From Torpedo marmorata (lineage: Eukaryota): 64,000 nt of DNA. The first letter of the stretch is position 1; each line of letters starts with the position of its first letter. The position numbers were made by a program, and so were the translations under genes. The stretch covers positions 120,962,001 to 121,026,000 of the forward strand of contig OZ360221.1 in NCBI GenBank assembly GCA_977017645.1, in the 5' to 3' direction. This document shows, in pieces, positions 14,625-49,189 of the stretch. The notes below the pieces were generated by a model. It did no database searches and was not told where the DNA came from. It saw nothing but the letters and a program-made list of their open reading frames with translations.

Positions 14625-16800
14625 TTTTTAAAAAATATTTTATTTAAAATTTTTAAATCACAAAATACATAAAATAAAATATGAAATTATCAAAATATTT
14701 GTGATACATTTTCACCCCCCCTCCCACCCTCCCCTCCCCAACCCTCCCAACCCCACTAATCTAATAAAAATAGAAAATAAAAATAGAAAAAGAGGAAAAA
14801 AAAAGAAGAAAGAAAAGATAGAGTAAGGAGAATGCCAATCTAAAAAAAAAATCTATAAACTAATTCTATTATGGAGGTCAGGTATGCCAGTAGATCCGAT
14901 ACCCAGAGATCTTCAAATCCTTAAACCAACAACTTTCATATATGGGCTCCAAATTTTTAAGAAAAAATGATATTTGTTACGTAAATTATAAGTAATTTTT
15001 TCAACTGGTATACATGAACGAAGTTCTGCATGCCATCTTTCTAACCCCAAATCTACATCAGATTTCCAAGTAATAGCAATACATTTCTTTGAAACAGCTA
15101 AAGCAATTCGCAAAAATTCTATTTGATACATGTTTAATTTCATCTTAATACTAAATTTTCTAATATCTCCGAACAAAAATATCATAGGATCCATTGGAAA
15201 TATAATCTTAAATACTTTATCTAAATTTTTTTTAAACTTTCAACCAAAAATCATAAATTTTGGACAAAACCAAGTAGAATGTACAAAAGAACCTTCCTCT
15301 TTATTACATCTAAAACATAAACCTGATAATGTCGGATTAAATTTCTTTAGTTTTTTAGGTGTTAAATATAATTGATGAAAAAAATTGTATTGTACTAATC
15401 TATATCTAACATTAATAATCTTCGTCATACTTAATTTACATAATTATTTCCAATGATTTTCATCTATTATTACATTCAAATCTAATTCCCATTTTAATCT
15501 TGATTTATGAATTCCTACTTTAGGAATTTTCCTCTGAAACAATTTATACATTTGAGAAATAAATTTATTGACATCTCCTTTAGTAACTAATAATTCTAAT
15601 TCATTCTGTCTTGGTAAAATCAAAGCATAGCCTAATTTCTCAATCAGAAAAGCTCTAATTTGATAATAAGCAAAAAGTGTATTATCTAATATATTAAATT
15701 TATCTTTCATTCTTTGAAAAGTAATAAATTTCCCAGCTTCAAAACAATCATTAATCTTCTTAATTCGTTTTTGAAACCAAATTTTAAATAATTGATTATT
15801 AAAAGTAAATGGAATAAGTCCATTTTTATATAAAGGCATCCTTGAAGAAATCAATCATTTTCCTCCTATTTCCTTATCTGTCTTATTCCATATTTCTAAC
15901 AAATGTTTAAGAATAGGAGAATTTTTTCTTCTTGTTGATATTAATTTAGAGTCCCATTTATAAATAACTTCTTCTTTAGAATCTTCTCCTATATTATTTA
16001 ATTCTATTCTAATCCAAGCAGAAGATTTAGTTAAATCAAAAAATTCATTAACAAATTTTAATTGAGCTGCTTTATAATAATTTTGAAAGTTAGGAAGTTG
16101 TAAACCACCCATTTCATAATTCCAAGTTAATTTTTCTATACTTACCCTTGCCAACTTTCCTTTCCATAAAAACTTCCTAATAATTGAATTTAAATCTTTA
16201 AAACATTTTTGAGGAATTTCATAAGGAATTGATTGAAAAAGATATTGAATTCTTGGAAAAACATTCATTTTAATACAATTTACTCTTCCCATTAAAGTTA
16301 TAGGTAAATCTTTCCAATTTTCTAAATCTTTTTTAATTTTCATAAACAATGGTAGATAATTTAATTTATATAAATTAACCAATTTTGTATCAATCTTTAT
16401 TCCCAAATATTTAATTCCTTCTTTTGCCCATTTAAATTGTGTAATTTCTTTACATTTACTATAATCCCCTTGCGTTAATGCCATAATTTCACTTTTATCA
16501 GAATTAATTTTATATCCAGATATTTCCCCATATTCTCTCAATAAAGCAGACAATTGTACTAAAGATGTAATAGGTTTTGTCATATATATCAATACATCAT
16601 CTGCAAATAAACTAATTTTATGTTCTTCCGCTCCAACTTTAATACCTACAATTTTAACATCTTTTCTAATTCTGCCAAAGGTTCTATCGCTAAAGTAAAT
16701 AGTGCTGGTGATAAAGGACATCCTTGTCTAGTAGATCTAGTCAGAGGAAATCTTGAAGAAATTTGTCCGTTTGTAACTACTTTAGCAGATGGTTCTTTAT
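14625..16800 (-). mobile_element. L1-clade LINE copy B (same family as A), 5'-truncated within RT
   Basis: KISLFADDVLIY in ORF 15855-16721; 3' UTR near-identical to A, with a G-rich tract. Confidence 0.9.
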
Positions 16801-18140
16801 GACCTTTAATGTTGTTGAAAGATCAGTCAGTTAATGAGGATGTACAGTTAAATTTGTTAGATTATGTTTCAAAGTTCAAAGATCATTTACAGAAGGTCTG
16901 TCAGATAGCTGAGGAGAATTTTAAAATGGCTCAAGATGATATGAAGGTTTGGTATGACAGAAAAGCCAGAGAGAGAATTTTTAAACCAGGGGATAAAGTG
17001 TTAATTCTTTTTCCAACAATTTCTAATCCTCTCAGAGAAAAATTTTCACGACCTTATGAAATAGAATCTAAGGTAAATGAAGTTAATTATGTGGTTAAAA
17101 CTCCTGATAGGAGATGTAAAACACAGTTGCCACGTTAACATGTTAAAACCTTATTTTGAGAATTTGGATGTCAGCCAGAAGCAGCCTTCACCAGAGGTAT
17201 TGGTTGTGGAGAAAATTGAGGCGGTTATGGATCATGAGACCATACAAGCTGATTCTTGTGAGAGTCATTTTAAAGAGAATATTGTTACAGTTTGTTTACT
17301 TAATTCAAGTATATTGGAAGATTTGGATGAGAAGTTGGCTCATTTGAAACCTCAGGAAAAGGAACAAATAGGACAGTTGATTTTAAAATACAGAAATTTA
17401 TTTCTGGATGTGCCACAGATCGCTTGCCATGATGTTGATGTTGGAGATGCAAATCCTATCAAATAGCATCCATATAGAATGAATATTGAAAATTGTAAAT
17501 AGGTAGATCAAGAGATTGAGTACATGTTAAAGAATGATATTATTAGACGTTCTACTTCAGATTGGAGTTCACCTTGTGTACTGGTACCTAAATCAAATGG
17601 GACAGTTAGATTTTGCACTGATAATAGAAAAGTTAATGCAGTGACAAAAACAGATGCTTATCCTATCCCGAGGGTGGATGATTGTGTGGATAAGATTGGA
17701 AAAGCTACCTTTCTTACAAAAATAGATTTATTAAAGGTAACAGAAAGAGGAATGGAAATTTCATCCTTTGTAACCCCATCGGTTTTATATGAGTACAATG
17801 TTTTACCATTTGGAATGAAGAATGCTCCAGGAACATTTCAAAGGATGATTAATTCTGTGACTCAAGATTTAAAACATGCAGATGCTTATATTGACGACTT
17901 GGTTACAGGGAATGATACATGGGAAGAACACATCTCTGCTTTAGAGAAATTGTTTGATAAACTTTTGAAAGCCAATCTTACTGTTAATTTAGCTAAAAGT
18001 GAATTTTGTCATGCTAAGGTGACTTATCTTGGTTATGTTGTTGGCCAAGAAAAAGTGGCGCCTGTTCAAGCTAAAGTTTAGACAATTATTGAATGTCTTG
18101 TACCCACGAGTAAGAAAGCTGTGAGGAGATTTTTAGGCTT
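16801..18140 (+). mobile_element. Gmr1-like Ty3/Gypsy pol fragment (integrase upstream of RT), no LTRs
   Basis: Integrase C-terminus (WYDRKARERIFKPGDKVL..RPYEI..HVNMLKPY) directly precedes RT (WSSPCVLVPK..RFCTD.RKVNAVT..DAYPIP..YIDD). The IN-before-RT order is diagnostic of Gmr1 elements. Confidence 0.82.
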
Positions 18141-18228
18141 ATGTGTCTAAGAAATTCAATCAACACCAAAACAATTATTCTACTATTGAAAAGTAATTAT
18201 TGTCTCTTGTATGGGCTTTGCAACACTT

Positions 18229-21200
18229 CAAAAAAAATTTATTTAAAATTTTAAATCACTCGATAATACATATTATAAAATGCAAAATTATCAAAATACA
18301 TGTGATATATTTTCACCCCCCCCTCCCTCCCTCCCCTCCCTAATCCTCCCACCNNNNNNNNNNNNNNNNNNNNNNNNNNNNNNNNNNNNNNNNNNNNNNN
18401 NNNNNNNNNNNNNNNNNNNNNNNNNNNNNNNNNNNNNNNNNNNNNNNNNNNNNNNNNNNNNNNNNNNNNNNNNNNNNNNNNNNNNNNNNNNNNNNNNNNN
18501 NNNNNNNNNNNNNNNNNNATGTCAATCTAAAAAAGAACAACTATAAACTAATTTTATTGTGGAACATAGGTTCGCCAGTCAGATCTGATATCCAGAGATC
18601 TTCAAATCCATATTTTCAAAAAGAACTGATATTTGTTACGTGAATTATAAGTAATTTTTTCAAGTGGTATAGCTGAACGAAGTTCTGCATGCCATCTCTC
18701 TAACCCTAAATCTACATCAGATTTCCATGTAATAGCAATGCATTTCTTAGAAACAGCTAAAGCAATTTGCAAAAATTCTATTTGATACATATTTAATCTC
18801 ATCTTAATACTAATTCTTTTAATATCTCCTAACAGAAATATCATAGGATCCATTGGGAGTGTATTTCTTAATACTTTGTCTAAAAACTTTTTAACTTTCA
18901 ACCAGAAATCATATATCATTGGACAAAGCCATGTAGAGTGTACAAAAGAACCTTCCTCTCTATTACATCTAAAACATAAACCTGATAATGTCGTCTTAAA
19001 TTTCTTTAATTTCTTAGGTGTTAAATATAATTGATGTAAAAAATTATATTGCACCAACCTATATCTAACATTAATAATCTTCGTCATACTTTGTTTACAT
19101 ATTTCTTTCCAATGTTCCTCATCTATCGTTACATTCAAATCTGATTCCCATTTTAATCTTGATTTATGAATTCCTAATTTAAGCATTTTCCTCTATAACA
19201 ATCTATATATTTGAGAAATACATTTATTTACATCTCCATTAGTAACTAATAATTCCAATTCACTTTGTCTTGGTAAAGTCAAACTATAACCCAACCTTTC
19301 AACTAAAAATGCTCTAATTTGATAATAAGCAAAAAGTGTATTATTTAATACATTAAACTTCTCTTTCATTCTTTGAAAAGTAATAAATTTACTAGCTTCA
19401 AAACAATCATTTATTTTTTTAATTCCTTTTTGGAACCAAATTTTAAATAATTGATTATCAATAGTAAATGGAATAAGTTTATTTTGATATAAAGGCATTT
19501 TTCGAGAAATTAACCCTTTCCCTCCTATCTCCCTATCCACTTTATTCCATATTTCTAACAAATTTTTTAAAATAGGAGAGTTTTCACCTCCTCTTAATAG
19601 TAATTTAGAATTCCATTTATAAATAACTTCTTCTTTCAAATCTTCTTCTATATTATTTAGTTCTATTCTAATCCAAGCAGAAGATTTTCCTAAATCAAAC
19701 ATTTCATTAATACATTTTAATTGAGCTGCTTTATAATAATTTTGAAAATTGGGAAGTTGTAAACCACCCATTTCGTAATCCCAGGTTAATTTCTTCATAC
19801 CTACTCTAGCCAACTTTCCTTTCCACAAAAATTTCCTAATAATTAAATTTAAATCTTTAAAATATTTTTGAGGAATTTCATAAGGAATTGATTGAAAAAG
19901 ATATTGAATTCTTCGAATAACATTCATTTTTATACAATTTACCCTTCCTATTAAAATTATAGGTAAATCGTTCCAACTTTCTAAATCTTTTTTAATATTC
20001 ATAAATAATTGTAAATAATTTAAGTTATATAAATTTGCTAATTTTGTATGTTTTTATTCCCAAATATTTAATTCCATAATTTGACCATTTAAATCGTGTC
20101 ATTTCTTTACATTTATTATAATCTCCTTGTGTCAATGCCATAATTTCACTTTTATCAGAATTAATCTTATAACCAGATATTTCCCCATATTCTCTCAATA
20201 AAACATTCAGTTGTGTTAAATAAGTAATAGGTTTTGTCATGTAAATCAATACATCATCTGCAAATAAACTAATTTTATGTTCTTCTTTTCCAACTTTAAT
20301 ACCTACAATCTTAATATCTTTTCTAATTAATTCTGCTAAAAGTTCTATTGCTAGAATAAACAATGTTGGCGACAAAGGGCATCCTTGTCTAGTTGACCTC
20401 GTCAACAAAAATTTTGAAGAAATTTGTCACCACTCTGGCAGAGGGTTCTTTATATATAGTTTTAATACAATTAATAAATGTAGTTCCAAAACCAAATTTT
20501 TCCAATACCTTAAATAAATAATTCCACTCTAATCTATCGAAAGCCTTTTCGGCATCTAATATTAATATTAATGCTAATTCTTCTTTCTTTTGTGCCACAT
20601 TTATTAAACTAATTAATCTAGCTATATTAACTTTTGAATATCTATTCTTAATAAAGCCTGCTTGATCTACATGGATTAAATCTGGTAAATATTTAACCAC
20701 TCTATTTGCTAAAATTTTTGCCATTATCTTATAATCGACATTTAGCAATTAAATTGGTCTATATGATTCTGTTTTCAACAAATCTCTATCTTTTTTAGGT
20801 ATAACTGTTATTATTGCATTTGAAAATGTTTCCGGTAGAGAATGAGTTTCCGTTATTTGTTTTAACACCTCCATATATGAAGGTATCAATAAATCTTTAA
20901 ATTCCTTATAAAATTCTGATGGGAAACCATCCTCCCCCGGAGATTTTACACTTGTTAAAGAACTAAGAACATCATTAACATCTCTCATCGTAAACAATGA
21001 ATCTAAAAGTTCTTTACTTTGAATATTTAATCTGGGTAACTTAACTTTAGATAAAAATTCATTAATTTTAGAATCATCTTTATCAGTTTGAGATTTATAT
21101 AAATATAGATAAAATTCCTTAAAATAATCATTTATTTCTCGTGGTTTATATGTTATTTTCTTTGAATTCTTTTTTATAGCACTTATAGTTCTAGAAGTTT

Positions 21201-24143
21201 GTTCTTTCTTTAATTGCCACGCTAACACTTTATGAGCTCTTACTCCCAATTCATAATATCTTTGCTTAATTCTTTCAATTAATTTTTCCATTTTATATGT
21301 TTGTAACGTATCATTTTTTTTCGATTAAATTCTCCCTCTTTTCGTCTGATCTCTTTTGCAAATCCTTCTTCAAAAACTCGATCTCCTTCTCCAAATTATC
21401 CAATTCCTGAATATATTCCTTCTTAACTTTTGCTGAATAACTTATTATTTGACCTCTTAAATAAGCCTTTAGAGCTTCCCAAATAATAAATTTATTGTCA
21501 ATCGAATTAGAATTAATCTGTAAAAATTCTTGAATTTTTCTTCTTATATAATTACAAAAATCCGTTCTTTTCAATAAAGAAGAATTAAATCTCAATCTAT
21601 ATATAATTTTTTCTTTTTCTGGAATTATACATGACATTAATAGAGGTGAATGATCAGAAATTATTCTTGCTTTATATTGTGCTTGTGATGACAATAAAAA
21701 CATGTCTATTCTAGAATAAGAATCATGTCTAAAAGAATAAAAGGAATAATCTTTTTCTCTTGGATTCAACTTCCTCCAAATATCTATTAAATTTAAATCT
21801 TTCTTCAAAGTAAGAATTATTTTAGCAGTTTTAGTTCTGATAGTTGATTTTGATGTATTATCCATTATTGGATCTAAACAACAATTAAAATCCCCACCAA
21901 TTAAAATATTATCATTTGCTTCTGACAAGTGCATAAAAGAATCTTGAATAAATTGTTCATATTCCGTATTTGGCACATATATATTCATGAGTGTCCACAT
22001 TTCTGAATATATCTGACAATTTATTAAAACATATCTTCCTGACACATCTATAACCACAGATTGTATTTTAAAAGGTAACTTTTTATTAATTAATATAGCA
22101 ACTCCTTCTGCTTTAGAATTAAATGAAGACGCAATCACTTGACCAACCCATTCTCTGTTCAACTTCTGATGTTCTATATCTGTCAAATGTGTCTCCTGTA
22201 AAAAAGCTATAATATATGCTAAAGTTTTCTTCCTTTTAATCGAATTATTTAGCCCATTTATATTAATACTTACTACATTTATTAATTTACTATCCGCTAT
22301 TTCTAATATTTAATAACTCTCTCTCCATCAGACCTACCGGTTCCCCCTTCCACATTTGTAATCTATTTGACATCTCCTTAGAAAGAAAAATAAAAAAAAG
22401 AAAAAGAAAAAAAAAACTAAAAAACCCACTATATTTAATACTGGTATAATTACCCCAGTACTACCCCCCTCCATTGTTCGGGAAGTGGCCCTCGCCACTA
22501 AGGTGATGTGTGACTAGGTACGGAGAAGACAAAAAGTCCACCCCCCCCAACAGATTTTACACAACATTTGTTATCATTTCTTCATCCAGCTTCTTCGAGA
22601 TCTCTGTTAGCTTGATCCTCATCCATTTCGACCCCATCTTCTTGTCCTGAGACTCTTGGTGAGTCGGTACAATAACTTGAACTTGAATTTGCCCCATCAA
22701 ATCTTGATCTTTCTTTAATTTCAGAAGTGAATTTGCATGCTCCAAAGCTTCTTTATAATCAGTAAAAAAGAATGACTGATTGTCTGCAGACTGAACCTTC
22801 AATGTCGCAGGACATCTAAACGAAAATTTATATCCTTTACTGCAAAGTATTGCTCTCGCTGGGTTAAATTCTTTTTGTTTTTTAATTATTACTGCGCTTA
22901 GATCAGCATAAAAAATACCCTATTTTTATTAATTATCAATGGACTCTGGTTCATTCTAGCATTTTGAACAGCTAATTTCAGTATCTTCTCTTTATCCTGG
23001 TATCAAAAACATCTGATTAACACTGAACGTGGCCTTTGTCCAGGATACGGTTTTTTTCTGCTATCTCTATGGGCTCTATCTAATTCCAGTCCATATGGAA
23101 AGTGATCAGTACCCAAACCTTGTGGAATCCACTCTTGAAAAAATTTAGTTATGTTCACCCCTTCAAAGTCCTCAGGCAATCCCACGAGTTTAACATTATT
23201 TCTCCGACTCTGATTTTCCAATACATTTATTTTTTGTAAAAGTTCATTTCTTTGTTGCTCCCAACCTGTAAATGAGTCTTCCACTTTTTCTACTCTGTCT
23301 TTATATTACACCATTTCTTCATAGTGCTCTTTAACATCATTTTCAAATTTCTGGACTTTCGATATTACTTTATCCACAGTATTTGTATGTTTTCCCATAT
23401 CTTGCTTCATGTCTCTCATTTCTTCTTCAATTCCATTAAATCTAAATTCCATGTGTTGATTCATCTTTGACACTTGTTTTGTTAAATTGTCCATAGCTTT
23501 AATCAAAGTCTCTGATATTTCCTGTTTAGCCTGTGGTAATTGAGCCTCTTCTCCACTTAGTCCTTCATCCTCTCCCTCTATTTCTTCTATTTCTTCCTCC
23601 ATTTCTTCATCTTTCTCTCTCTTTTTGTCTTCTGAATCTGTTGATGATAAAAATTCCTGTCCCACATCATATTGAAATGATTGAAGGGCTCTTCTTTTGC
23701 CGTCAGCCTTAGCTGACAGCTCCCGTTCTCTATCGCGCATGCGCACCATTTCGCGCATGCGCGATCACTCACTTTCAGATTGTAGTTCTTTAGTCTTCTT
23801 TCGAGCGCCAGCGCCATCTTACCCAGCTCCCCGGGAGGACAGCGCTGGCGCGGAAGTTACCTTAAGCGTCTTTGTCTGCGTCTTCCTGGGAGGGAGAGAA
23901 ACTTGAGCCCAAGGCTCCATCGAAAAGTTAGGCCGATCTACCTATTGAATTAAACTTTCCTGAAACACTACTTTTTTTGCCTTTTGTTCCTTTCCTTTTC
24001 TTGTAGTCATTGTTGAATCATTAATAAACAATCTTAACTTTTTTAAATAACTAAATAAAGTTTTTTTAAACAGGTTTTAATTAATTCTGTAGGGAGAGGT
24101 GTATTTCCACGTCTCCAACCTATACCATCACGCCACACCCCCC
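18229..24143 (-). mobile_element. Full-length (~5.9 kb) decayed L1-clade LINE copy C: ORF1 ~24010-22557, ORF2 ~22300-18602
   Basis: 15-bp TSD GGCTTTGCAACACTT at 18214-18228 and 24144-24158. ORF1 has LENQSRRNNVKLVGLPE..ELDRAHR; ORF2 has APE (IGGDFN, SRIDMF, SDHSP) and RT (TRQGCPLSP, LFADD). Several stops and frameshifts. Confidence 0.93.
18354..18518. other. Assembly gap (165 N) in the G-rich 3' UTR of L1 copy C
   Basis: Run of N. Confidence 0.99.
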
Positions 24144-32493: not shown

Positions 32494-33214
32494 AATCTGT
32501 CAAATATCTCTGAGGTTCACATCTATGAATTATTTTGGGATGCATTAAACTCAGGTTTGCAGGTAAACTGCTTATTTTCTTTATCTTTTATCATTCTTTT
32601 AGTAATCATCAAAATGCACACAATTCTGTTAAAGATCAAGGCACTTTTTTCTCACACTTTTTTCTTACATATCTTTTACACACACCCATGTGTGATGAAA
32701 ACTGCTGGTCTGAGATTTACATGCTACTCTTCTTATACTGACTGGGAGGTCTGAGCATGTCACAGGTCAGAGGATACAAGCAGGGACTAAGGAAAGGAGG
32801 TAAAGGAAAACGTTGAATTTAGGAGTGCAGGATTAGAGACTGAAATTTGAAATGTATACAATGTAATTGTTTGTAGCAGAAAAACCAGTTGAGGAGGAAT
32901 AAAACCAGGATGCACTAAGCAGAAGATATGCAACTGAATGGAAATACTCAGGCAAGATATGCTGAACCATGGGGTTGTGAATAATTTGAAAATTGGCATC
33001 CTCAAAAGTCCTGGAAGAAAGAATAGGGTGATGGAACAAACAATGAGAAGTTGAAGGGTTTTGGCAGGTCAGGCTTCATCCACGGAGAAGAAATCGACAG
33101 TCAATGTTTCAGGTCAGGACCCTTACTCGAGACTAAAGTTGGAGACAGTAAGCATAAAAAAGGAGAACGTGGGTGGGAGAAGGGCTAGGAATAGGTCAAA
33201 ACATAATTGGTTGG

Positions 33215-36200
33215 TGATACGCCCATCAATACTCCAAAAGAAAAGAAGTTACACAAGAACTGAAAGGCTTTTATTAGCTACAGAATGGATCTACATTCGT
33301 GCTGGTGATCTGTCCCGGACTGAGGGAGGAGTTGTGGCACAATGGCCTTTTTTCAAGGGGGGTAGTGGGAGGAGCCACCGGGACAGTCAGCAGGGCATGT
33401 CCAAACCTATCACCAGCCCACAATACATATATAGTGGTTTACCACATTCACCCCTCCTTTTAAAAGAGTCCAGCGGGGTGAAGTGAACACTAACAACACA
33501 TCTAAAATATATTACAGTCACAGATCGAGTCGATCAGGCGGTCGAGTCTGACGTCGTGATCGGCCCAGTACTTGTGGTGATGGGGCAGGCGGCGGAGCCA
33601 CCTCCTGCCTGGTTTGGGGTACCGGAACGTCAGGTGACGGCGAAAGTGCTGGTGAGTGTGGTGTCGTGTTGGGATCGAATGGTGCGTCTTGTGTTTGCAC
33701 AGGGGTAATCGTAACAAGGGGGTGTTCGAGGGCGGGTTCCGGTGCTCCTGCGGGCGCCAGGTCCCGGATGGAGACGGTGTCTTCCCGCCCATCAGGGAAG
33801 ACCACGTAGGCGTACTGGGGGTTGGCATGAGCTAACTGGACCCTCTCAACCATTGGGGCGTATTTATTGCTCCTAATATGTTTGCGGAGCACAATATGGC
33901 TGGGGACGTCAGCCATGCTGGTAGGGTAGTCCCGGTGGTCGACTTCCTGGGGAAAGAAAAGAGTCTTTCATGAGGAGTCGCATTGGTGGACGTACATAGC
34001 AGGGATTGGATGGAATGGAGGGCCTCGGGAAGAACTTCTTGCCAGCGGGAGACTGGTAATCCCTTAGACCTGAGGGCTAAGAGAGTGGCCTTCCAGACCG
34101 TGGCATTCTCCCTTTCCACCTGTCCGTTACCCCGAGGATTGTAGCTCGTGGTCCTGCTAGTGGCGATACCCCTGGCCAGCAGATATTGTCGCAGCTCGTC
34201 GCTCATAAAGGAGGACCCCCGGTCGCTATGGATGTAGCAGGGGAAACCAAACAGGGTGAAGAGTTTGCGGAAAGCTCTGACAGAGGTGGCCGAGGTATCG
34301 GGGCAGGGAATGGCGATAGGGAACCGCGAGTACTCATCAATAACGTTGAGGAAGTACACGTTGCGGTCGGTGGATGGGAGGGGACCCTTGAAGTCGACGC
34401 TGAGTCGCTCAAAGGGGCGGGTCGCCTTAACTAGCTGTGCCCTGTCAGGGTGGTAGAAGTGCGGTTTGCACTCCGTGCAGACCTGGCAGCTGCTGGTCAT
34501 CGCCCTGACCTCTTCTAGGGAGTACGGTAGGTTACGGGCCTTCACAAAGTGAAACAGCTGGTAACTCCGGGGTGGCAGAGGTCACAGTGGAGGGCCTATA
34601 ACCGGTCGATCTGTGCGCTAGCGCACGTCCCCCGGGATAGAGCATCGGAGGGCTCATTGAGCTTCCCGGGCCGGTACATAATATCATAGTTGTAGGTGGA
34701 GAGTTCGATTCTCCACCTCAGGATTTTGTCGTTTTTGAATTTACCCCGCTGCTGATTGTTGAACATGAATGCGACTGAGCGCTGGTCAGTCAGCAGGGTA
34801 AACCTTTTGCCGGCGAGATAATGCCTCCAGTGCCTGATAGCTTCCACTATGGCTTGGGCCTCTTTCTCCACCGCGGAGTGCCGAATTTCTGGGCCTTGAA
34901 GGGTACGGGAGAAGAACGCCACCGGTCTTCCCGCCTGGTTGAGGGTAGCAGCCATTGCGAAGTCGGACGCGTCACTCTCTACTTGGAAGGGAGTGGACTC
35001 GTCCACCGCGTGCATTGCTGCTCTGGCAATGTCCCCTTTTATGAGGTCGAAAGCCTCACGTGCCTCCGCTGCAAGGGGAAAAGTGGTGGACTTGACTAGG
35101 GGGCAGGCCTTATCTGCGTAGTTAGGGACCCATTGGGCGTAATATGAAAAGAAGCCCAAGCACCTTTTGAGGGCTTTCAGGGTGTGGGGAAGCGGTAGTT
35201 CCAACAGGGGGCGCATGCGGTCGGGGTCGGGGCCGATGACCCCGTTCTCCACAACACACCCCAGGATAGCAAGTCGGGTGGTCCCGAACACGCACTTATC
35301 CTTGTTGTAGGTGAGATTAAGTGCTTTGGCCGCCTGGAGGAACTTCCGAAGGTTGTTGTCGTGGTCCTGGCAATCGTGACCGCAGATAGTGATATTGTCC
35401 AAGTACGGGAAGGTGGCTTTTAAATTGTACTGGTCCACCATCCTGTCCATCTCCCTCTGGAAGACGGATACCCCATTTGTGACCCCAAAGGGGACGCGCA
35501 GGAAATGATAGAGCCTGCCGTCCGCCTCGAAGGCGGTGTAAGTGCGGTCCTCTCAGCGAATGGGTAGCTGGTGGTAGGCAGACTTGAGGTCTATGGTGGA
35601 GAAGAGCTTATATTGTGCTATCTGGTTAACCATATCCACAATGTGTGGCAGGGGTTACGCGTCAAGCTGCGTGAACCTATTGATAGTCTGGCTATAATCC
35701 ACCACCATTCTATTTTTGTTCCCATTCTTCACGACGACCACCTGGGCCCTCCAGGGACTTGTGCTCGGTTCAATGATCCCCTCCCCAAGTAATCGCCTCA
35801 CCTCTGACTTGATGAATGCCCTGTCCCCTGCACTATATCTCCTTCCCCAGTCCGGGACAGATCACCAGCACAAATGTAGATCCATTCTGTAGCTAATAAA
35901 AGCCTTTCAGTTCTTGTGTAACTTCTAGTCTTTTGGAGTTATTGATGGGCGTATCAATTTTATTAGCTACACTGTAAATATGGAGAGCATTCTGAGACCA
36001 GACAAACTGGACATCGACCCGCAAGCATCGGACAGCAGTAACGCCTTCGAACTCTGGCTAGTCTGCTTTGAGTCGTTCCTACAGGAGATCAAGGTGCGGG
36101 ACGACGCGGAAAAACTCAATGTCCTCCTCTCTAGGGTAAGCCCACGAGTTTACTCAATGATCCACGACTGGCAGACCTACGAGGAGGCGATGAATGCACT

Positions 36201-37767
36201 GAAACGTCAGTATATACAGCCTGTGAACTCTGTATACGCGAGGCACAGGCTAACGACGCGGCAGCAGCGGCCCGGGGAGTCGATCGCAGAGTTCGTACGG
36301 GCCATACAGACACTCGTGCGGGCGTGTGACTGCAGGGGGCTGACGGCTGAGCAGCACGCAGAGCTGCTAGGAAGAGACACCTTTGTCACGGGGATCAGGT
36401 CAGTGTACGTGCGCCAGCGACTGCTGGAACATGCTGACCTGACCTTCCGTTCGGCGATTGAACTGGCCAACACGCTGGAGGCCGCGCTTCAGAACTCGGA
36501 CGCTATTCAAGTGCGCGATCTCCAGCAGGCCCCGTGGATGCCACCGACCCCCCACCCTACTAGCGACTCGACTACCGCCGCCATCAGCCGCAACCCCGAG
36601 AAATGCTATTTCTGCGGGCTCGAGAAGCACCCCCGAAAACGTTGCCCGGCCTGCGAAGCGACCTGCTCCAGCTGCGGTAAGAAAGGCGACTTTGCCAAGG
36701 TCTGCCGCTCAAAGCCGAGAGCGGGTTCGAGCAGTGCCGCGTGCGAGACTCGTCTTCTGTGCCGTCACTTCCGCTGCCGTCCTACCCACCCGCCGCTGCC
36801 AACACGTGCGAGGAATGGGGGCAGCCATCTTGGGCCTCGTCACTTCCGGCGCCGCCATCTTACCGACCCGACGCTTCACTTCCGGCGCCGCCATTTTACC
36901 GTCCCGGCGCTAACACGTGCGATCCATGGGGGCGGCCATCTTCTTCCGCGCCGGCGAGCCGACACTGGGTGCCGCCACCCCGGGACAGCGGCCACTCCAT
37001 CGCGACGTCGGATCAAGACAGCGACCTTACACTGGCGTCAGTGACACTCGACCAGAGTGCACCCCATCAACTATCGAGGTCAATGATGGACATTCTGGTC
37101 GAGGGACACAGGATAAACTGCCTGTTCGACACAGGCAGCACTGAGAGCTTTATTCACCCCGACACAGTGCAGCGATGTGGCCTCGCGACACTGCCGGTAA
37201 GCCAAAGGGTTGCCATGGCTTCCGGGTCGCACACAACAGACATCCGGGGGGGTTGTGTGGCGATGATAGTAGTACAGGGCACGGAATACCGGGACTTCAC
37301 ACTATTGGTCATGCCCCGACTGTGTGCCCCTGTACTACTGGGCCTCGATTTCCAGAGCCACCTCCAGAGCGTTACCATGAAGTATGACGGGCCCCTCCCA
37401 TCGATTACCGTCGGTAATCACCAGTTCCTCAAAAACACACCCCACACTACTTGGGGTCTATCCACCCTCAAGATCCCGCCCCCGTCGCTATTCGCCAACC
37501 TGACCTCTGACTGTAAACCTGTACCTAATAAAATTGATACGCCCATCAATAACTCCAAAAGACTAGAAGTTACACAAGAACTGAAAGGCTTTTATTAGCT
37601 ACAGAATGGATCTACATTCGTGCTGGTGATCTGTCCCGGACTGGGGGAGGAGTTGTGGCACAATGGCCTTTATTCAAGGGGGGTAGTGGGAGGAGCCACC
37701 GGGACAGTCAGCAGGGCATGTCCAAACCTATCACCAGCCCACAATACATATACAGTGGTTTACCACA
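33215..37767 (-). mobile_element. Ty3/Gypsy LTR retrotransposon copy 1 with an internal inversion
   Basis: LTRs 33215-33446 (3') and 37535-37767 (5'), TG..CA; 5-bp TSD GTTGG (33210-33214 and 37768-37772). RT/RH/IN on minus (33518-35843); R-U5-gag-PR on plus (35844-37522). Confidence 0.93.
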
Positions 37768-38542
37768 GTTGGAGAGACAGAGTGATAGACAGGGGAAGAG
37801 GCCATGTGGGGAAACAGGGGGTGGGGGAGTGGAATGGTGGGGTTGAGAGAAAGTCAGACTGGAGCAGATCATGGACAGATGGAAACAGTGGAACCAGAAT
37901 GATGTTGGGATACACTATTTGGTTTTATGCTACCTAAGTGGACTATAGAATGTGCTCCTCAAGTTTACATTTGGTCTTATTTAATTGTAGTTTTCTTTAT
38001 AGTTTATACTTCATCTTTGTAACACTCTACCCTGCACCCTTTGACTTACTTTAAGACTACACCATGCACTTTTATTATACTATTGCAATACCTGCTGTAC
38101 TTAAGAATGGGTTGACTTGCCTGGAAAGCAGGCAGATGTTCAGTTTCTCAGTACACTGACAATAAACAAATTCAATTAGAAGAAGCAATTGATCTTGCAA
38201 ACTTTTCTCAGCCTCAAACTATACCAATCTGCTACACAACCAACATTCATGTTGCAGTCAATGGACAAAATCTATATACAGTGGAGTTCCAAAAACATTA
38301 ATGAGATTAGTGGCTAAATATCCCTTTACATTGGTCACAGAATAAGTAATGGCTAAGATACCAAAATGCTATGCTCGCCCCCAAATCTTTTAGCTCTCTT
38401 GGAACTGTTTGATAGGAGGTAGCTGTAACAAATTTATCCCCAAAAAAAAACATTTTTTTTCTGGTTCAAGGGGAAGAGACGTTGCACTCCCAAAAATAAT
38501 TATTTCTCTGCTACAAACAAAAATCAAGTGCTCAATTTTTTG

Positions 38543-38781: not shown

Positions 38782-40834
38782 GAATCACAAGTCTTCAGTT
38801 CTCACTATGCACCAAGCATATTTCACGAGACCTTATTCAATGCAGTAAAACAGCTATTGCTGAAAAAAACACATTTTTTAGAAGCAAATAATACAAGAAT
38901 AATGTCAAATTGCCATACATCAATTCCTGCCAACTATTTTTGCTGTAGTCTAAAATAAATGAGCAATTCCAAATTTCTAATGGCCAAAGATAATCTTTAT
39001 CCTATTTCTAGATAGAACCATAGAACACTATAGTACAAAAAACAGGCCATTCGTCCCTTCTAGTCTGTGCCAACCATTATTTTGCTAGTCCCATTGACCT
39101 GCTCCCATTCCATAACCCTCCAGACCTCTTCCATCCATGTATCGATCCAATTTATTCTTAAAACTCAAGATCGAGCCCGCATTCACACCAGATGGCAGCT
39201 CAATCCACACTCCCACCACTCTCTGAGTTTAGAACTTTCCCCTAATGTTCCCCCTAAACCTTTCCCCTTTCATCTTAAAACTATGACCTCTCGTATTTAT
39301 CTCCCCCAATCTAAGTGGAAAAAGCCTACTCGCATCCACTCTGTCTATACCTCTCATAATCTTGTAAACCTCTTTCAAATCTCCCCTCATTCGTCTTCGC
39401 TCCAAGGAATAAAGTCCTAACCTGTTTAATCTTTCCCTATAACTCAACTCCTGGAGACCTGGCAAAATCCTAGTAAATCTTCTCTGCACTCTTTCAATCT
39501 TATTGATATCCTTCCTGTAGTTAGGTGACCAGAACTGCACACAATATTCCAAATTTGGCCTCACCAATGTCTTAAACAACTTCAACATAACATCTCAACT
39601 CCTATACTCAATACTTTGATTTATAAAGGCTAAGATGCCAAAAGCTTTCTTTACAACCCTGTCCACCTGTGACGCCACCTTCAGGGAACAATGTATCTGC
39701 ATTCCCAGATCTCTCTGCTCCTCTGCACTCCTCAGTGCCCTACCATTTACTGTGTACGTCCTACCTTGGTTTGCCCTGCCAACATGCATCACCTCACACT
39801 TGTCTGCATTAAACTCCATCTGCCATTTTTTGGCCCATTCTCCCAGTTGGTCCAGATCCCTCTGCAAGCTTTGAAAATCTTCATCGCTGTCCACAGCGCC
39901 TCCTTTCTTTGTGTCATCAGCAAATTTGCTGATCCAATTTACCACATTATCATCCAGATCATTGATATAGACAACAAACAACAATGGTCCCAACACAGAT
40001 CCCTGAGGCACACCAGTCACAGGCCTCCAGTCTGAGAAGCAACCATCCACCACTCTCTGTTTTCTCCCACACACCCAATTACGAATCCAGTTTACGACCT
40101 CTCCATGGATACCTAGTGTCATAACCTTCTGAACTAACCTCCCATGTGGGACCTTGTCAAAGGCTTTACTAAAGTCCATGTAGACAACATCCACAGCCTA
40201 TCCTTCATCTACCTTCTTGGTAACCTCCTCGAAAAACTCTACAAGATTCATTAAACATGACCTACCACGCACAATGCCATGCTGACTGTCCTTAATCAGC
40301 CCATGGCTGTCCAAATACCTATATATCCTATCTCTCAGAATTCCTTCCAATAATTTACCTACTACTGACGTCAAGCTCACTGGCCTATAATTACCTGGTT
40401 TATTTTTGGAACCTTTTTTTAAACAACGGGACAACATGAGCTACCCTCCAATCCTCTCGCACCTCACCCGTGGCTAAGGACATTTTGAATATATCAGCCA
40501 GGGCCCCTGCAATTTCTACACTAGTCTCCCTCAAGGTCCGAGGGAATATCATATCTGGACCGGGTGATTTATCTACCTTTATTCGCTGTAAGGCAGCAAG
40601 CACCTCTTCCTCCTTCATCTCCATATGTTCCATGACCCTTCTGTTTGTTTCCCTTCCTTCCTTATGCACAATGCCAGTTTCCTGAGTAAATACTGATGCA
40701 AAAAAAAACTGTTTAAGATCTCCCCCATTACGTGAGGGTCCATACGTAGTTGACCTCTTTGATCCTCAAGGGAACCAATTTTGTCCCTTACTATCCTTTT
40801 ACTCTTAATATACTTATAGAAACCCTTCGGGTTT

Positions 40835-43800
40835 TGTGGTAAACCACTGTGTATGGATTGTGGGCTGGGTGATAAGTCTGGACATGCCCCTGCTGACTGT
40901 CCCGGTAGCTCCTCCCACAGATCCCCTTGAATAAAGGCCATTGTGCCACTGCCCCTCCCCCAGTCCGGGACGGATCATCAGCACGAATGTAGCTCCATTC
41001 TTTTGCTAATAAAAGCCATTCAGTTCTTGTGTAACTTCTAGTCTTTTGGAGTTATTGATGGGCTCATCAATTTTATTAGCAAAATTGTAAACATGGAGAA
41101 CATCTTGAGACCAGACAAACTGGACATCGACCCACAAACACCGGAAGCTGGCAATGCCTTCGAACTCTGGCTAGTCTGTTTTGAATCATTCCTGGAGGAG
41201 ATCAAAGTGCAAGAAGACGCCGCAAAAAGCAAGATCCTCCTCTCCAGGGTAAGCCCTCGAGTCTACTCTATGATCCGAGATCTACAGACTTATGAGGATG
41301 CAATGAATACCCTTAAAAGACAGTACATACGGCCTGTGAAAACTGTGTACGCAAGACACAGGCGAGCGACGCGGCAGCAGCGGCCCAGGGAGTCGAGCGC
41401 GGAGTTCGTACGGGCCCTACAAACACTCGTGCGGGCGTGCGACTGTCGGGGACTGACGGCTGAACAGCATGCAGAGCTCCTCGTGAGAGACGCTTTCGTT
41501 ACGGGGACCAGGTCAGTGTATGTGAGCCAGCGGCTGCTGGAACAGGCTGACCTTACCTTCCGTTCCGCGATCGAACTGGCCGACACGTTGGAGGCCGCGC
41601 TACAGAACTCGGATGCTATCCAGGCGCGCGATCTCCAGCAGGCCCCGTGGATGCCGCCGACCCCCCACCATACCAGTGAATCGACCACTGCCGCCATCAG
41701 CCGCGAGCCCGAGAAATGCTATTTCTGCGGGCTTGAGAAGCACCCGCGGAAAAGTTGCCCGGCCTGAGAAGCGACCTGCTACAGCTGCGGGAAGAAAGGC
41801 CACTTCGCTAAGGTCTGTCGATCTACACCGCGAGCGGGATCGAGCAGCGCCGCGTGCGAGACTCGGGGGCGGCCATCTTGTGTGTCGTCACTTCCGTCTC
41901 CGCCATCTTACCTACCCGCCGCCGCGGCCAACACGTGCGAGGTATGGGGGCGGCCATCTTGTGTTTCGTCACTTCCGTCGCCGCCATCTTACCTACCCGC
42001 CACCAACACGTGCGAGTCATGGGAGCGGCCATTTTGTTCCACGCCAGCGAGCCGACACAGGGTGCCACTATCCCGGGACAGCAGGCACTCCATCGCGACG
42101 TCGGATCAAGACAGCGACCCAACGTTGGTGTCAGTTACACTCGACCAGAGTGCACCCCACCTACTCGCGAGGTCGATGATGGACATTCTGGTCGAGGGAC
42201 ACAGGACAAACTGCCTGTTCGACACAGGCAGCACAGAGAGCTTCATCCACCCTGACACGGTACAGCGATGCGGCCTCACGACACAGCCGGTAAGCCAGAG
42301 GGTTGCCATGGCTTCCGGGTCGCACACAACAGACATCCGGGGGGGTTGTGTAGCGACGATAGTGGTACAGGGCACGGAATACCGGGACTTCACGCTATTG
42401 GTCATGCCCCGACTGTGTGCACCTGTACTACTAGGGCTCGACTTCCAGAGTCACCTCCAAAGTGTGACTATGGAGTATGACGGGCCCCTCCCACCGATTA
42501 CTGTCGGTAATCACCAATTCCTTAAAAACGGCAAGAATATTTTGTCACCCCACACTACTTGCGGTCTATCCACCCTCAAGATCCCGCCCCCATCGCTATT
42601 CGCCAACCTGACCCCTGATTGTAAACCTGTGGCAACCAAAAGCAGGAGATATAGCGCAGGGGACAGGGCATTCATTAAGTCAGAGGTGCAGCGGTTACTT
42701 GGGGAAGGGATCATCGAGGCGAGCACAAGTCCCTGGAGGGCCCAGGTGGTTGTCGTCAAGAACAGGGACAAAAACAGGATGGTGGTAGATTATAGTCAGA
42801 CCGTCAATAGGTTCACGCAGCTTGACGCGTACCCCCTACCACGCATTGCAGATATGGTAAATCAGATAGCTCAGTATAAGCTTTTCTCCACCATAGACCT
42901 CAAATCTGCCTACCACCAGCTCCCCATTCGCCGGGAGGACCGCCCCTACACTGCCTTCGAGGCGGACGGCAGACTCTATCATTTCCTGCGCGTTCCCTTT
43001 GGGGTCACAAATGGGGTTTCCGTCTTCCAGAGGGAGATGGACAGGATGGTGGACCAATGCAAATTAAAGGCCACTTTTCCATACTTAGATAATATCACCA
43101 TCTGCGGTCACGACCGCCAGGACCACGATAACAATCTTCGGAAGTTCCTCCAGGCGGCAAAAGCGCTTAACCTAACCTATAACAAGGATAAGTGCGTGTT
43201 CCGAACCACCCGACTCGCTATCCTAGGGTGCGTTGTGGAGAACGGGGTCATCGGCCCCGACCCCGACCGCATGCGCCCCCTGTTGGAACTACCACTTCCC
43301 CACACCCTCAGAGCCCTCAAAAGGTGCTTGGGCTTCTTTTCTTACTATGCTCAATGGGTCCCTAATTACGCGGACAAGGCCCGCCCCCTTGTCAAGTCCA
43401 CCACTTTTCCCCTTGCAACGGAGGCACGTGAGGCTTTCAGCCTCATAAAAGGGGACATTGCCAGAGCAGCAATGCACGCGGTGGACGAGTCCACTCCTTT
43501 CCAAGTAGAGAGTGACGCGTCCGACTTCGCACTGGCTGCTAACCCTCAACCAGGCGGGAAGACCGGTGGCGTTCTTCTCCCGTACCCTTCAAGGCCCAGA
43601 AATTCGGCACTCAGCGGTGGAGAAAGAGGCCCAAGCCATAGTGGAAGCTATCAGGCACTGGAGGCACTATCTCGCCGGAAAAAGGTTTACCCTGCTGACT
43701 GACCAACGCTCAGTCGCATTCATGTTCAGCAACCAGCAGCGGGGTAAAATCACAAATGATAAAATCCTGAGGTAGAGAATCGAACTTTCCACCTACAACT

Positions 43801-45274
43801 ATGATATAATGTACCGGCCCGGGAAGCTCAACGAGCCCTCCGATGCTCTATCCCGGGGGACGTGCGCTAGCGCACAGATCGACCAGTTATATGCCCTCCA
43901 CTGTGACCTCTGCCACCCCGGAGTCACCAGGCTTTTTCACTTTGTGAAAGCCCGTAATCTACCGTACTCCCTGGAAGAGGTCAGGGCGATGACCAGCAGC
44001 TGCCAAGTCTGCGCAGAGTGCAAACCGCACTTCTACCATCCTGACAAGGCACAGTTGATAAAAGCAATCCGCCCATTTGAGCGACTAAGCGTCGAATTTA
44101 AGGGCCCCCTTCCCTCCACCGACCGCAATGTGTACTTCCTCAACGTTATTGATGAGTACTCGCGGTTCCCTTTCGCCATTCCCTGCCCCGATACCACGAC
44201 CACCTCAGTCATGAAGGCCCTCCGCAAACTCTTCACGTTGTTTGGATACCCCTGCTATATCCATAGTGACCGAGGGTCCTCATTTATGAGTGACGAGCTG
44301 CGACAATATCTGCTGGCCAAGGGTATCGCGACTAGCAGGACCACGAGCTATAACCCACGGGGTAATGGACAAGTGGAGCGGGAGAACGCCACGGTCTGGA
44401 AAGCCACACTCTTAGCCCTCAGGTCTAAGGGATTACCAGTCTCCCGCTGGCAAGAAGTCCTTCCCGAGGCACTCCACTCTATCCGATCCCTGCTGTGTAC
44501 ATCCACCAATGCTACACCTCATGAGAGACTCTTTTCCTTCCCCAGGAAGTCAACCACCGGGACTACCCTACCAGCATGGCTGACGTCCTCAGGGCCAGTG
44601 CTGCTCCGGAAACATGTCAGGAGCAATAAATACGCCCCGATGGTCGAGAGGGTCCAATTATTACACGCGAACCCCCAGTACGCCTACGTGGTTTTTCCTG
44701 ATGGGCGGGAAGACACGGTCTCCATCCGGGACCTGGCGCCCGCAGGAGCACTGGAACCCGCCGCTGCCCTCGAACACCCTGTAGTTACGGTTACCCCCTT
44801 ACCTACCATTAAGGACACACAAGAGGCACCACCCAATTCAAACACGACACCACACGCACCAGCATATTCATCTGAGGTTTCGCCAGACATGCCGGTACCC
44901 CAGATCAGGCAGGAGGCAGCACCGCCACCTGCCCCATCACCACAAGTACTGCCTGATCGACTCGATTTGTAATTTTAATCTCTTGTAAATATTGTTATAC
45001 ACTTCACCCCGCTGGACTCTTTTAAAAAGGAGGGGTGAATATGGTAAACCACTGTGTATGGATTGTGGGCTGGGTGATAAGTCTGGACATGCCCCTGCTG
45101 ACTGTCCCGGTGGCTCCTCCCACAGATCCCCTTGAATAAAGGCCATTGTGCCACTGCTCCTCCCCCAGTCCGGGACAGATCATCAGCACGAATGTAGCTC
45201 CATTCTTTTGCTAATAAAAGCCTTTCAGTTCTTGTGTAACCTCTAGTCTTTTGGAGTTATTGATGGGCTCATCA
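40835..45274 (+). mobile_element. Full-length Ty3/Gypsy LTR retrotransposon copy 2 (4.44 kb)
   Basis: 235-bp LTRs at 40835-41069 and 45040-45274 (6 differences counted by eye); 5-bp TSD GGTTT; polypurine tract AAAAAGGAGGGGTGAA immediately before the 3' LTR. Confidence 0.96.
41093..44972 (+). pseudogene. Single gag-pol ORF of Gypsy copy 2 (Gag with two CCHC knuckles, PR, RT, RNase H, IN) carrying three lesions
   Basis: Stop at 41765, +1 frameshift at ~43540, TAG at 43773. Motifs CYFCG..H....C, CYSCGKKGHFAKVC, LFDTGS, YLDN, SDAS, HPG..C..C, IHSDRGSSF, GNGQVER. Confidence 0.9.
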
Positions 45275-46644
45275 GGTTTACCTTCACATTATCTGCCAAA
45301 GCAACCTCATGTCTTCTTTTTGCCTTCCTGATTTCCTTCTTGAGTATTTTCTTGCATTTTCTGTACTCTTCAAGTACCTCATTAGCTCCTTGTTGCCTAT
45401 ACTTGCTATACACCTCTCCCTTCTTCTTAACCAGATCGCCAATATCCCTTGAAAACCAGGGTTCCCTATGCCTGTTAACTTTGCCTTTAATCCTAACAGG
45501 AACATGCAAACTCTGCACTCTCAAGATTTCACCTTTGAAGGCCTTCCACTTACTTAACACACCCTGGCCAGAAAACAACATATCCCTATCCACTCTTCCT
45601 AGATCCTTTCTCATTTCCACAAAATTTGCCTTCCTCCAATTTAGAATCCCAACATGAGGATCAGACTTATCCTTTTCCATAATTAACTTGAAGTTAATTA
45701 CATTATGGTCACTAGACCCAAAATGTTCACCTACACATACATCTGTCACCTGACCTGTCTTGTTTCCTAATAGGAGATCAAGTATTGCATCCTCTCTTGT
45801 TGGTACCTCTATATATTGATTTAGAAAACTTTCCTGAACACATTTCACAAACTCCAAGCCATCCAGCCCTTTTACAGTATGGGAGTCCCAGTCAATATTC
45901 GGAAAGTTAAAATCTCCTACTATCACAACGTTCTGCTTCTTACATCGGTCTGCTATCTCTCTACAGATTTGCTCCTCCAATTCTCTCTATTGGGCGGTCT
46001 ATAATACAACCCTATCAGTGTGGTCACACTTTCCAGTTCCTCAGCTCCACCCATATGGCCTCTGTAGACAAACCCTCCTGGCTGTCCTAACTTCACACAG
46101 CTGAGATATTTTCCCTGACTAGCAATGCCACTCCTCCCCCTTTTATCCCTCCCCCTCTATCACGTCTGAAGCAACGGAACCTCGGAACATTAAGATGCCA
46201 GTCCTGCCCCTCCTGCAACCAAGTCTCACTAATAGCAATAATGTTGTAATCCCACGTGTCAATCCATGCCCTAAGCTTGTCAGCCTTTCTAACAATACTC
46301 CTTGCATTAAAATAAATACACCTGAGAAAATGTCTATCACGTACAAACCTTTGATTTCTGTCTATACATGCACTGGACTTCAGATGGCAGCTACTCACGT
46401 GGATTATGAGATTTTGTTTATCCAGTTGCATTTGGTCTCTCCACAGCAATGGAGAAGGCCGAGGGCAGATTGATAAAGGAGAAGGAAGGAGAATTACAAT
46501 GACATGCAACCGGAAACTCTTGATTGCTATTGTAGACAAAGCTCAGGTGATCTCCAACACGATCACCTTGTCTGCATTTAGTTTCTCCAATGTAGAGCAG
46601 TTAAATCCGAGCTCTCTACTCAGTAGTGTTAAGAAGTAAATCAC

Positions 46645-48070: not shown

Positions 48071-49189
48071 CAGTGCCTATTAACGCAACTGGAGGCCCTG
48101 GGCTAGGAGACCTTGGGAGGCCCAAACTAAATAGCATCTGATCATGAGAAACAAAACCTCGTTCTCTTCTTTATCTACTCAATGAAAATAGAACATTGCT
48201 GAAATTTTAGCATTGATAAAAAGATTGTTTATAAATTTATAACCTTTAATAAGTTTACAAAAGTATGGAATTAATGAAGACGTTCACACAGAACATTCAT
48301 AGCTATGTTTCAACATTACACTATATACAAAGTCAGAACAGTTTCTTTCGAGCTTTTTTGGATGCAAACTTATCAATTATGTCATTAAAATCAGTATGTT
48401 GCAGTTTATCATTTTCTATGCAGAGAATGCTCAGATCAGACAACCGATCTTGGGAAATTGTTGACCGTAGATCACTCTTAATCCTTTTTAGTCTAGAAAA
48501 TGATCTTTCACCAGTACAGTTAGTAACCATTAAACACAGGAACAATCTGAAAATTGTTTCCACATTTGGAAAAGCTGTCCGAATTTTCTCCTGGAATATT
48601 ATTTGATGCATTTCTTGGAGGCTGAAATTGTCTTTTTCAGGGTGAGCTTGTTTGACATACAGGTGGAAGTGCAAGAGTTCATCGACTAAACTAAGGTCAA
48701 CATCCTTTGGATACTCTTGCATCAACATCTCGACGCCATTGTGAATCTGTTCCTTGGTTGCTTGCAGGTTCACCAAAAATGAAAAATTGGCAGCTACACT
48801 CCTGTACACTGTTGCTCTTCTGTCGAGGTTGGCTTCAAGAGCATCCATGACATAATTCAGAATTCCTGCAAGTTGAGAATCGGCCATGCGGGAAAATCCC
48901 GCGGGAAAACTTGTGTAACTGTTATACATACGTGTTTAATGTTACTAAGCAACTGGGCCTCGATAGTAAAACCAAGGGCGAGTGCGTTCGGCACTCCAAT
49001 CAATGTGCTCCTGAATTTTATTTTGGATTTGTGCTTACACATTATTTTGGCCTAGGTACGCCCCTAATTTTTATCGTTACAAATGAAATAAAATTAATGG
49101 TAAATTTTTTATTGCAGGAGGCCGAGGCCCCCCTAGATTATGAGGCCCTGGGCTGCAGCCCGCTCAGCCCATATGTAAATCCGGCACTG
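48071..49189 (-). mobile_element. Internally deleted hAT (Tip100/ZMYM-like) DNA transposon with transposase C-terminal ORF 48929-48333
   Basis: TIRs CAGTGCCTATT / CAGTGCCGGATT; 8-bp TSD GTTGTAGA/ATTGTAGA (7/8); hATC dimerisation motif FPNV..IFRLFLCLMVTNCTGERSFSRLKRIKSDLRST..QDRLSDLSILCIE. Confidence 0.88.

Follow-up and report, generated by a model that had tools for sequence, protein, structure and literature searches.

How does a retrotransposon begin reverse transcription when no primer site of the transfer RNA (tRNA) type follows its long terminal repeat (LTR)? The question is raised by a Gypsy element, here called copy 2 (4,440 bp, 40835-45274, plus strand), in a stretch of 64,000 nucleotides from Torpedo marmorata (GCA_977017645.1, contig OZ360221.1, positions 120,962,001 to 121,026,000 of the forward strand), which as a whole we call the window and to which all coordinates refer. 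An initial annotation had claimed that the primer binding site (PBS) of this element is complementary to its own LTR, and this holds exactly, as the PBS at 41071-41084 is the reverse complement, at 14 of 14 positions, of an arm at 41001-41014 in the R region of the 5' LTR. By analogy with Tf1 we propose that the element on balance probably primes with its own 5' R arm instead of a tRNA, and that it primes itself in some form we hold to be likely, with good confidence.

The PBS pairs with the LTR of the same element

The arm, the predicted self-primer, consists of seven variable nucleotides followed by an invariant AATAAAA in which the poly(A) signal (41008-41013) resides; GCC (41015-41017) follows directly, the predicted cut lying at 41014/41015. 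A 14/14 match was obtained in none of 20000 letter shuffles of the LTR and PBS, and the second haplotype of the window is likewise exact, 35958-35971 being the reverse complement of 35888-35901. The annotation had set the PBS directly behind the LTR; its coordinates are right, and yet the LTR ends with CA at 41069, leaving a 1-nt spacer, A, at 41070. The absence of a TGG-type PBS was borne out, since no TGG follows the LTR. Six control elements that do carry a TGG-type PBS showed a self-complement of only 4-7 nt in 6/6 cases.

Folding gave z = -4.8 and -4.7 for two 90-nt segments, from copy 2 and from the duplicate within copy 1 described below, and the core helix, whose arm lies 56 nt from the PBS, is predicted to form with a pair probability of 0.9-1.0 in contexts of 139-500 nt. 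The AATAAA is predicted to be unpaired with a probability of 0.04 at the 5' end as compared to 0.93 in the 3' LTR (45040-45274), after which there is no PBS. The U5 hairpins of the annotation are present: hairpin A (41033-41053) has 6 bp, with shared G-U pairs and mismatches, and hairpin B (41055-41070), which resembles a U5-IR, closes on the LTR-terminal CA and the spacer A and includes one pair seen as G-C, G-U or A-U. The ATTGATG/CATCAAT hairpin is only 6 bp long when the long helix forms, its outermost pair competing with the first PBS base. Of the parts of a Tf1-like leader, the central duplex and a U5 hairpin adjoining the PBS are seen. A 5-bp helix between the upstream CCAT and the start codon is also present; it shows zero two-sided changes, and as it never changes on both sides we dropped it as a conserved structure.

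Arm and PBS change together

Among 124 loci of the Torpedo marmorata genome, which are best matches and no random sample, both arms were located in 114, and 105 of these pair at 14/14 positions. The perfectly paired loci fall into 11 haplotypes, nine of them present in at least two copies, whereas the nine imperfectly paired loci are all singletons and no haplotype with a non-Watson-Crick pair occurs in two or more copies. The rule also predicts: a lone 3' LTR from a more distant subfamily, whose gag is 72% identical, carries a new arm, and the PBS predicted from this arm beforehand was found behind 11/11 located 5' LTRs (12 regions), the pairing in this subfamily reaching 17 bp.

Across 18 distinct rows the pairing of the arm helix is 100%; five of its pairs have changed on both sides, no pair has changed on one side only, and its covariation is 0.205 as compared to 0.091 when shuffled (0/500 shuffles, a control that ignores relatedness); helices slid along the same rows are 33-53% paired, with a covariation of 0.025-0.063, and the two U5 hairpins retain G-U pairs and mismatches. 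Pair-state parsimony was applied on a gag tree for 111 of 122 loci, counts that recombination between subfamilies could distort. Shared changes of the helix were from one Watson-Crick pair to another in 12 cases and to G-U or a mismatch in none, private changes comprised four Watson-Crick replacements versus seven breaks, and in the U5 hairpins 0/10 shared changes were Watson-Crick replacements. Seven one-sided internal changes that had appeared in a single-column count of co-changes were an artefact of tie-breaking and are superseded by these values.

The helix also changes rapidly. Arm positions 1-7 underwent 2.29 changes per column, the flanking LTR 0.73-0.79 and the unpaired spacer before the ATG 3.0. 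As a stem maintained by selection alone should evolve more slowly than its flanks and pass through G-U, such fast and wobble-free change is what would be expected if the PBS were re-copied from the arm. When eight imperfect copies were followed to the end of the element, three combined a mismatched 5' arm with a readable 3' LTR, and in 3/3 of these the 3' arm matches the PBS, indicating that the mismatch in the 5' arm arose after insertion; two of the eight have a private PBS change while both arms agree with each other, and three gave no 3' LTR.

The pairing extends to distant relatives

Searches with gag in the 6.2 Gb genome returned more than 50,000 first-look candidates, a rough figure that does not give copy numbers. 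The closest named proteins are from rays, and relatives at 55-65% reverse transcriptase (RT) identity are single open reading frames (ORFs) of about 1,150-1,340 aa, usually with two CCHC knuckles, named relatives being found in Trichuris, Ischnura, Actinostola, Porites, Pocillopora, Acropora and Sanderia. Further afield we inspected 90 loci from metagenomes and metagenome-assembled genomes (MAGs), whose hosts are assigned from protein clusters only. A gag start with a CA-N-TT(T/A)(A/T) site was found in 48 of them; 22 have no N-terminus, two are too short, and 18 have no motif by the rule used, because the copy is decayed, the start was misplaced or the element is a distant one of the TGG type.

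Of the 48 loci, 40 form 11 or 12 pairs over the first 12 positions, and a single family accounts for 30 of the 48. By eye the distant loci form 14 families plus L115, and the best copies of these families pair over 11-17 nt, with one at 9, as compared to 7-10 in shuffles. These roughly 15 families have a common layout, in which a variable part and TAAA are followed by GCC and, further on, by CA-A-TTTA and the complement; the variable part is wholly different between families, while the TAAA at the arm end and the CA-A-TTTA at the PBS are fixed. The GCC is present in 40 of the 46 distant loci that pair at 10 or more of 12 positions, the PBS side of the helix begins 1 nt past the LTR-terminal CA in all families, and the hexamer is mostly ATTAAA or AATAAA, with AGTAAA, GGTAAA and GTTAAA also occurring. 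The annotation had called for a covariation check of R and PBS across genomic copies and relatives, and 105/114 copies and about 15 distant families keep the pairing. Scans of viral contigs and of a phage collection found no relative. The animal- or oomycete-like Gypsy elements L191-L200, L295 and L296 stand in bacterial MAG and plasmid records and are evidently eukaryotic contamination.

A model for self-priming

The promoter of copy 2 is predicted from a TATA-like AATAAAGG (40930-40937), which is kept in every subfamily LTR displayed, and the putative transcription start site (TSS) from an Inr-like site about 30 nt 3' of it (40960-40966); an alternative Inr-like CCATTC (40995-41000) directly precedes the arm. 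The distant relative L197 has the same TATA-like/Inr-like pair, and its arm follows about 100 nt later. The spacing of the two motifs points to a TSS 39 nt upstream of the arm here and about 100 nt upstream in L197, and on this basis the arm would be an internal part of R whose place is set by the poly(A) signal.

By analogy with Tf1 we propose that the 5' R arm folds back to the PBS and thereby closes the two short U5 hairpins, and that the RNase H of the element would cut at the end of the duplex, between TAAA and GCC. From the new 3' end the minus strand would be extended through U5, the first strand transfer would use the 15-25 nt of R that remain 3' of the cut, and plus-strand synthesis would copy the primer back into the PBS. 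As the primer would be copied back, a change in the arm would reach the PBS in about two cycles, with no second mutation needed. The Tf1 self-primer reportedly stays on the cDNA. This helix would also mask the poly(A) signal at the 5' end while the 3' signal stays exposed, so that a block of 5' polyadenylation is also predicted by the model. That the family primes itself was already the interpretation of the annotation, and the complementarity in 105/114 young copies and about 15 distant families supports it.

Copy 1 and its inversion

The annotation had treated copy 1 as a plain second copy in which arm and PBS differ from copy 2 at the same two positions and still pair. The pairing is indeed exact; the arms, though, lie within an inverted duplicate and not behind the true 5' LTR. 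Copy 1 is a minus-strand element (33215-37767, with the target site duplication (TSD) CCAAC at 33210-33214 and 37768-37772), having its true 5' LTR of 233 bp at 37535-37767 and its 3' LTR at 33215-33446. An inverted segment on the plus strand (35841-37522) holds a duplicate of R, U5 and PBS together with gag and the protease (PR), and the second haplotype, with its arm at 35888-35901 and PBS at 35958-35971, belongs to this duplicate (35888-35971). Behind the true 5' LTR the PBS (37533-37520, minus strand) has one mismatch and ends exactly at inversion junction A.

Junction A falls on the last PBS base, with short microhomology to pol, and this is the expected end of plus-strand strong-stop DNA; the Inr-like A is 4-10 nt downstream of the other junction. 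The inversion point lost 13 nt of pol, the LTR ends and TSD of copy 1 are normal, and the duplicate differs from the 5' LTR of copy 1 at 1 of 110 nt, the two LTRs of copy 1 differing at 5 of 232. Among 40 scored matches the junction occurs in one, copy 1 itself, and nowhere else. These features hint that a plus-strand strong-stop DNA ended at the PBS, misprimed on the RNA and ran to the RNA 5' end, in a manner likened to the twin priming of L1. A replication-based rearrangement after insertion is a possible alternative origin of the inversion.

Candidate traces of the priming reaction were also sought in other copies and rejected. In L109, which seemingly starts at the predicted cut, a further insertion, marked by a target duplication, breaks the copy. 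Three loci with a run of A after the poly(A) signal, considered as processed RNA copies, are not such copies, one of them beginning with a complete LTR and the other two adjoining another element, and they therefore do not map the poly(A) site.

Which copy of the arm, and which function

Several points weigh against priming by the 5' R arm as proposed. The self-primer of Tf1 and its kin is formed by the extreme 5' end of the RNA, according to the available part of the description (bioRxiv 2022.12.06.519325), and no tested precedent for an internal primer was found in the literature. The same arm is also present in the 3' R, and the donor may be either copy. No intermediate, in which both LTR arms had changed and the PBS was still old, was seen among the eight mismatched copies checked, and hairpin-templated repair could also make the arms equal. 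The loci are best matches and not random, 30 of the 48 distant ones belonging to one family, and the inversion of copy 1 is a single event, interpreted after the fact.

The first alternative is that the element primes itself with another copy of the arm, taken either from the 3' R of the same RNA, which would form a loop, or from a short transcript ending in the 5' LTR and acting in trans. If the TSS is upstream of the arm, the arm sits at both ends of the RNA, and its position follows the poly(A) signal, not the predicted TSS; the covariation results fit this alternative equally, and if copy 1 arose by twin priming, one RNA was copied across a 5' arm that had stayed uncut. Against it, the 5' arm is only 56 nt away from the PBS and predicted to be paired at more than 0.9, and short U5 hairpins bring arm and PBS together as in the 'pretzel' of Tf1, and we consider this alternative unlikely.

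According to the second alternative the helix is a regulatory RNA structure, which hides the 5' poly(A) signal or acts in packaging or translation, and another, unseen primer starts the minus strand. The poly(A) signal makes up the half of the helix that does not vary, its predicted exposure differing between the two ends (0.04 versus 0.93), and Gypsy elements with neither TGG nor a clear primer exist, as the accessible part of a report on Skipper states (PMC5006619). However, the helix evolves about three-fold faster than its flanks and keeps no G-U, whereas the adjacent hairpins do keep G-U; its 3' arm begins, in all families, 1 nt after the LTR-terminal CA, where priming must start; and relatives with GGTAAA or GTTAAA, which are poor poly(A) signals, still keep it. 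A purely regulatory role is in our judgement improbable.

The last alternative concerns the host. None of the PBSs starts with TGG, each of the 14 variants in this genome having TTTTAT at its start, and their best tRNA match is 5-7 nt among 27 distinct host tRNA genes for 7 amino acids, a partial set that also holds no tRNA matching the TGG-type controls. As the set is partial, we place the weight on covariation; the annotation had named a matching host tRNA as a test, and the best match in this partial scan does not exceed 7 nt. Priming by a host tRNA, tRNA half or other small RNA, with the self-complementarity incidental, is very improbable even though the scanned set is small, as 11 PBS variants, all without TGG, could fit no single tRNA, and each of the 11 haplotypes here, like each of the roughly 15 unrelated ones elsewhere, follows its own LTR.

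Placement of the clade

The claim that there is no chromodomain stands: 0/37 full-length relatives match Chromo, SH3_Tf2-1 or Ty3_capsid, the positive control L296 does match Chromo, and none of 120 precomputed lists contains a chromodomain. Of 15 Chromo matches in the Torpedo marmorata genome six were fetched, and none has an RT nearby that would indicate a chromodomain Gypsy. In the best tree of RT and RNase H (RH) sequences (38 rows, covering neither Tf1 nor sushi, and with L189, L295 and L296 excluded as too short), the family and its relatives form a clade (Shimodaira-Hasegawa-like approximate likelihood ratio support 100) outside the chromovirus clade (100), which consists of algal and plant elements and one axolotl element. 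Approximately unbiased tests do not reject sisterhood with chromoviruses (p 0.254) or a grouping with the axolotl element (p 0.13), so that the phylogenetic check proposed in the annotation places the clade outside the chromoviruses in the best tree and leaves kinship unrejected.

Like Tf1 and Tf2 of S. pombe, Tj1 and Tosmo/Tcry, in the partial descriptions available, the element is of the Ty3/Gypsy type, has no tRNA PBS, has a PBS complementary to its own 5' LTR and has flanking U5 duplexes. Tf1 and sushi are chromoviruses whose self-primer is the RNA 5' end within a structure of three duplexes, as the available parts of two sources describe (bioRxiv 2022.12.06.519325, PMC4600332). Unlike Tf1/sushi, the clade here has no chromodomain, has two CCHC knuckles, is about 30% identical to chromoviruses in RT-RH and has a helix of its own of 13-17 bp; unlike in Tf1, the putative primer has the poly(A) signal at its 3' end and is predicted to be internal, about 40 to about 100 nt into the predicted transcript. 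Self-priming has also been predicted for plant TAR (Houba/Osr-1) Ty1/copia elements and Tcn1 chromoviruses, the accessible portion of that study asking for a complement of at least 10 bp that starts 0-5 bp after the 5' LTR (PMC6317226). A complement of this kind is found here, in an element that differs from TAR and Tcn1 in superfamily or clade, and those have plant hosts.

Within animals, the Mag lineage of Gypsy has a Mag-like gag that is distantly related (24-35%). Gmr1-like elements of this genome and two Mag-like loci, the Mag label being our own reading, have a TGG PBS without a self-complement and an RT that is 25-32% identical; in the Gmr1 clade the integrase (IN) precedes the RT, whereas the element here has the order RT-RH-IN. 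Gypsy elements primed by tRNA, among them Mag, Gmr1 and CsRn1, are recognized by a TGG-type PBS that complements the 3' end of a tRNA, and the element here has no such site. An abundant young Gmr1-like family (L207-L216), with LTRs of 640-900 bp that are up to 100% identical and a TGG-type PBS, is present in the same genome.

Cigr-1 of Ciona is about 4.2 kb long, with an LTR of about 245 bp and one ORF of about 1,200 aa. By this match in size, the clade here may be the Cigr-1 clade or a MolGy clade, as a candidate only. The Cigr-1 clade is known from molluscs and annelids in the accessible parts of two studies (PMC6238403, PMC8556966), in whose main texts the words PBS and primer are absent. 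A motif search of the literature bearing on the Cigr-1 and MolGy clades found nothing. The literature searched contains no account of self-priming for this clade, with Repbase, GyDB, Butler 2001 and the Cigr-1 paper outside its scope, any of which may hold one; in particular it is not described in the available parts of PMC3601003, PMC6934838, PMC6238403, PMC3670739, PMC12471100, PMC7472051, PMC5006619 and PMC8556966.

As the element appears to work like Tf1 and lacks the chromodomain by which the Tf1/sushi group is recognized, an independent origin is possible. The fuller account, in which an old, animal-wide clade outside the chromoviruses would have come to self-priming independently, with an internal primer that ends on the poly(A) signal, a helix that both silences the 5' poly(A) site and primes, a PBS rewritten in each cycle, and the inversion of copy 1 as a fossil of plus-strand strong-stop DNA and twin priming, we offer tentatively, as something short of probable.

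Other features of copy 2 and of the window

Copy 2 has the characteristics of Ty3/Gypsy: LTRs of the form TG...CA, a TSD, a polypurine tract (PPT) and the order gag-PR-RT-RH-IN. The 5-bp TSD that the annotation had reported is seen in both copies, as GGTTT in copy 2 (40830-40834 and 45275-45279) and CCAAC in copy 1. The 5' LTR (40835-41069, 235 bp) is identical to the 3' LTR at 229 of 235 positions. The gag-pol (41093-44972) encodes the two CCHC knuckles that had been claimed, which are seen in the translations, followed by PR, RT with the motif YLDN, RH and IN, with no chromodomain; it is disrupted by an in-frame stop and a frameshift, and the best PDB match of the element protein is the Ty3-G Gag-Pol. 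The PPT (45024-45035) is followed by TGAA and the 3' LTR. In the window (45036-45039) as in the distant relative L195, GGGGTGAA stands between the PPT and the TG of the LTR, a conserved plus-strand start motif.

An 81-nt unit lies between gag and PR (41838-41999; 36790-36870 in copy 1), with at least two units in copy 2, and a Narcine relative (P0005) has another long repeat at the same position, indicating that this linker expands freely. The catalytic motif of the RT is YLDN instead of YxDD in the window (41768-43702) and in relatives (P0005-P0124), Asn taking the place of the second Asp in 84 of 118 scored relatives. Among 23 Torpedo marmorata loci nine have YLDN, eleven YLDD and three were unread, both forms occurring in young subfamilies; a literature search for the YLDN motif found nothing. 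Elsewhere in the window, three decayed copies of a non-LTR element lie on the minus strand (11682-22309, 26% GC), one with an endonuclease ORF, and the ends of a similar non-LTR element are inserted in the U5/R region of several LTRs of the family. A remnant of a hAT transposase dimerisation domain is found at 48336-48935.

Significance

To our knowledge, proof of self-priming exists only for Tf1, and the property is taken as a hallmark of the Tf1/sushi chromoviruses. Strict, fast and wobble-free covariation would provide a mark, readable from sequence alone and usable on any LTR library, by which primers that are copied can be told from ordinary RNA stems, and the young, abundant subfamilies of this genome, with tens of thousands of gag candidates, make the predicted cut site directly testable in native RNA. 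If our reading is true, it explains why annotation based on the PBS misses or mislabels these elements. A clade without a chromodomain, ranging from corals to rays, would then prime itself, tRNA independence would have a wider origin or multiple origins, and the clade would evade silencing that is directed at primer sites of the tRNA type.
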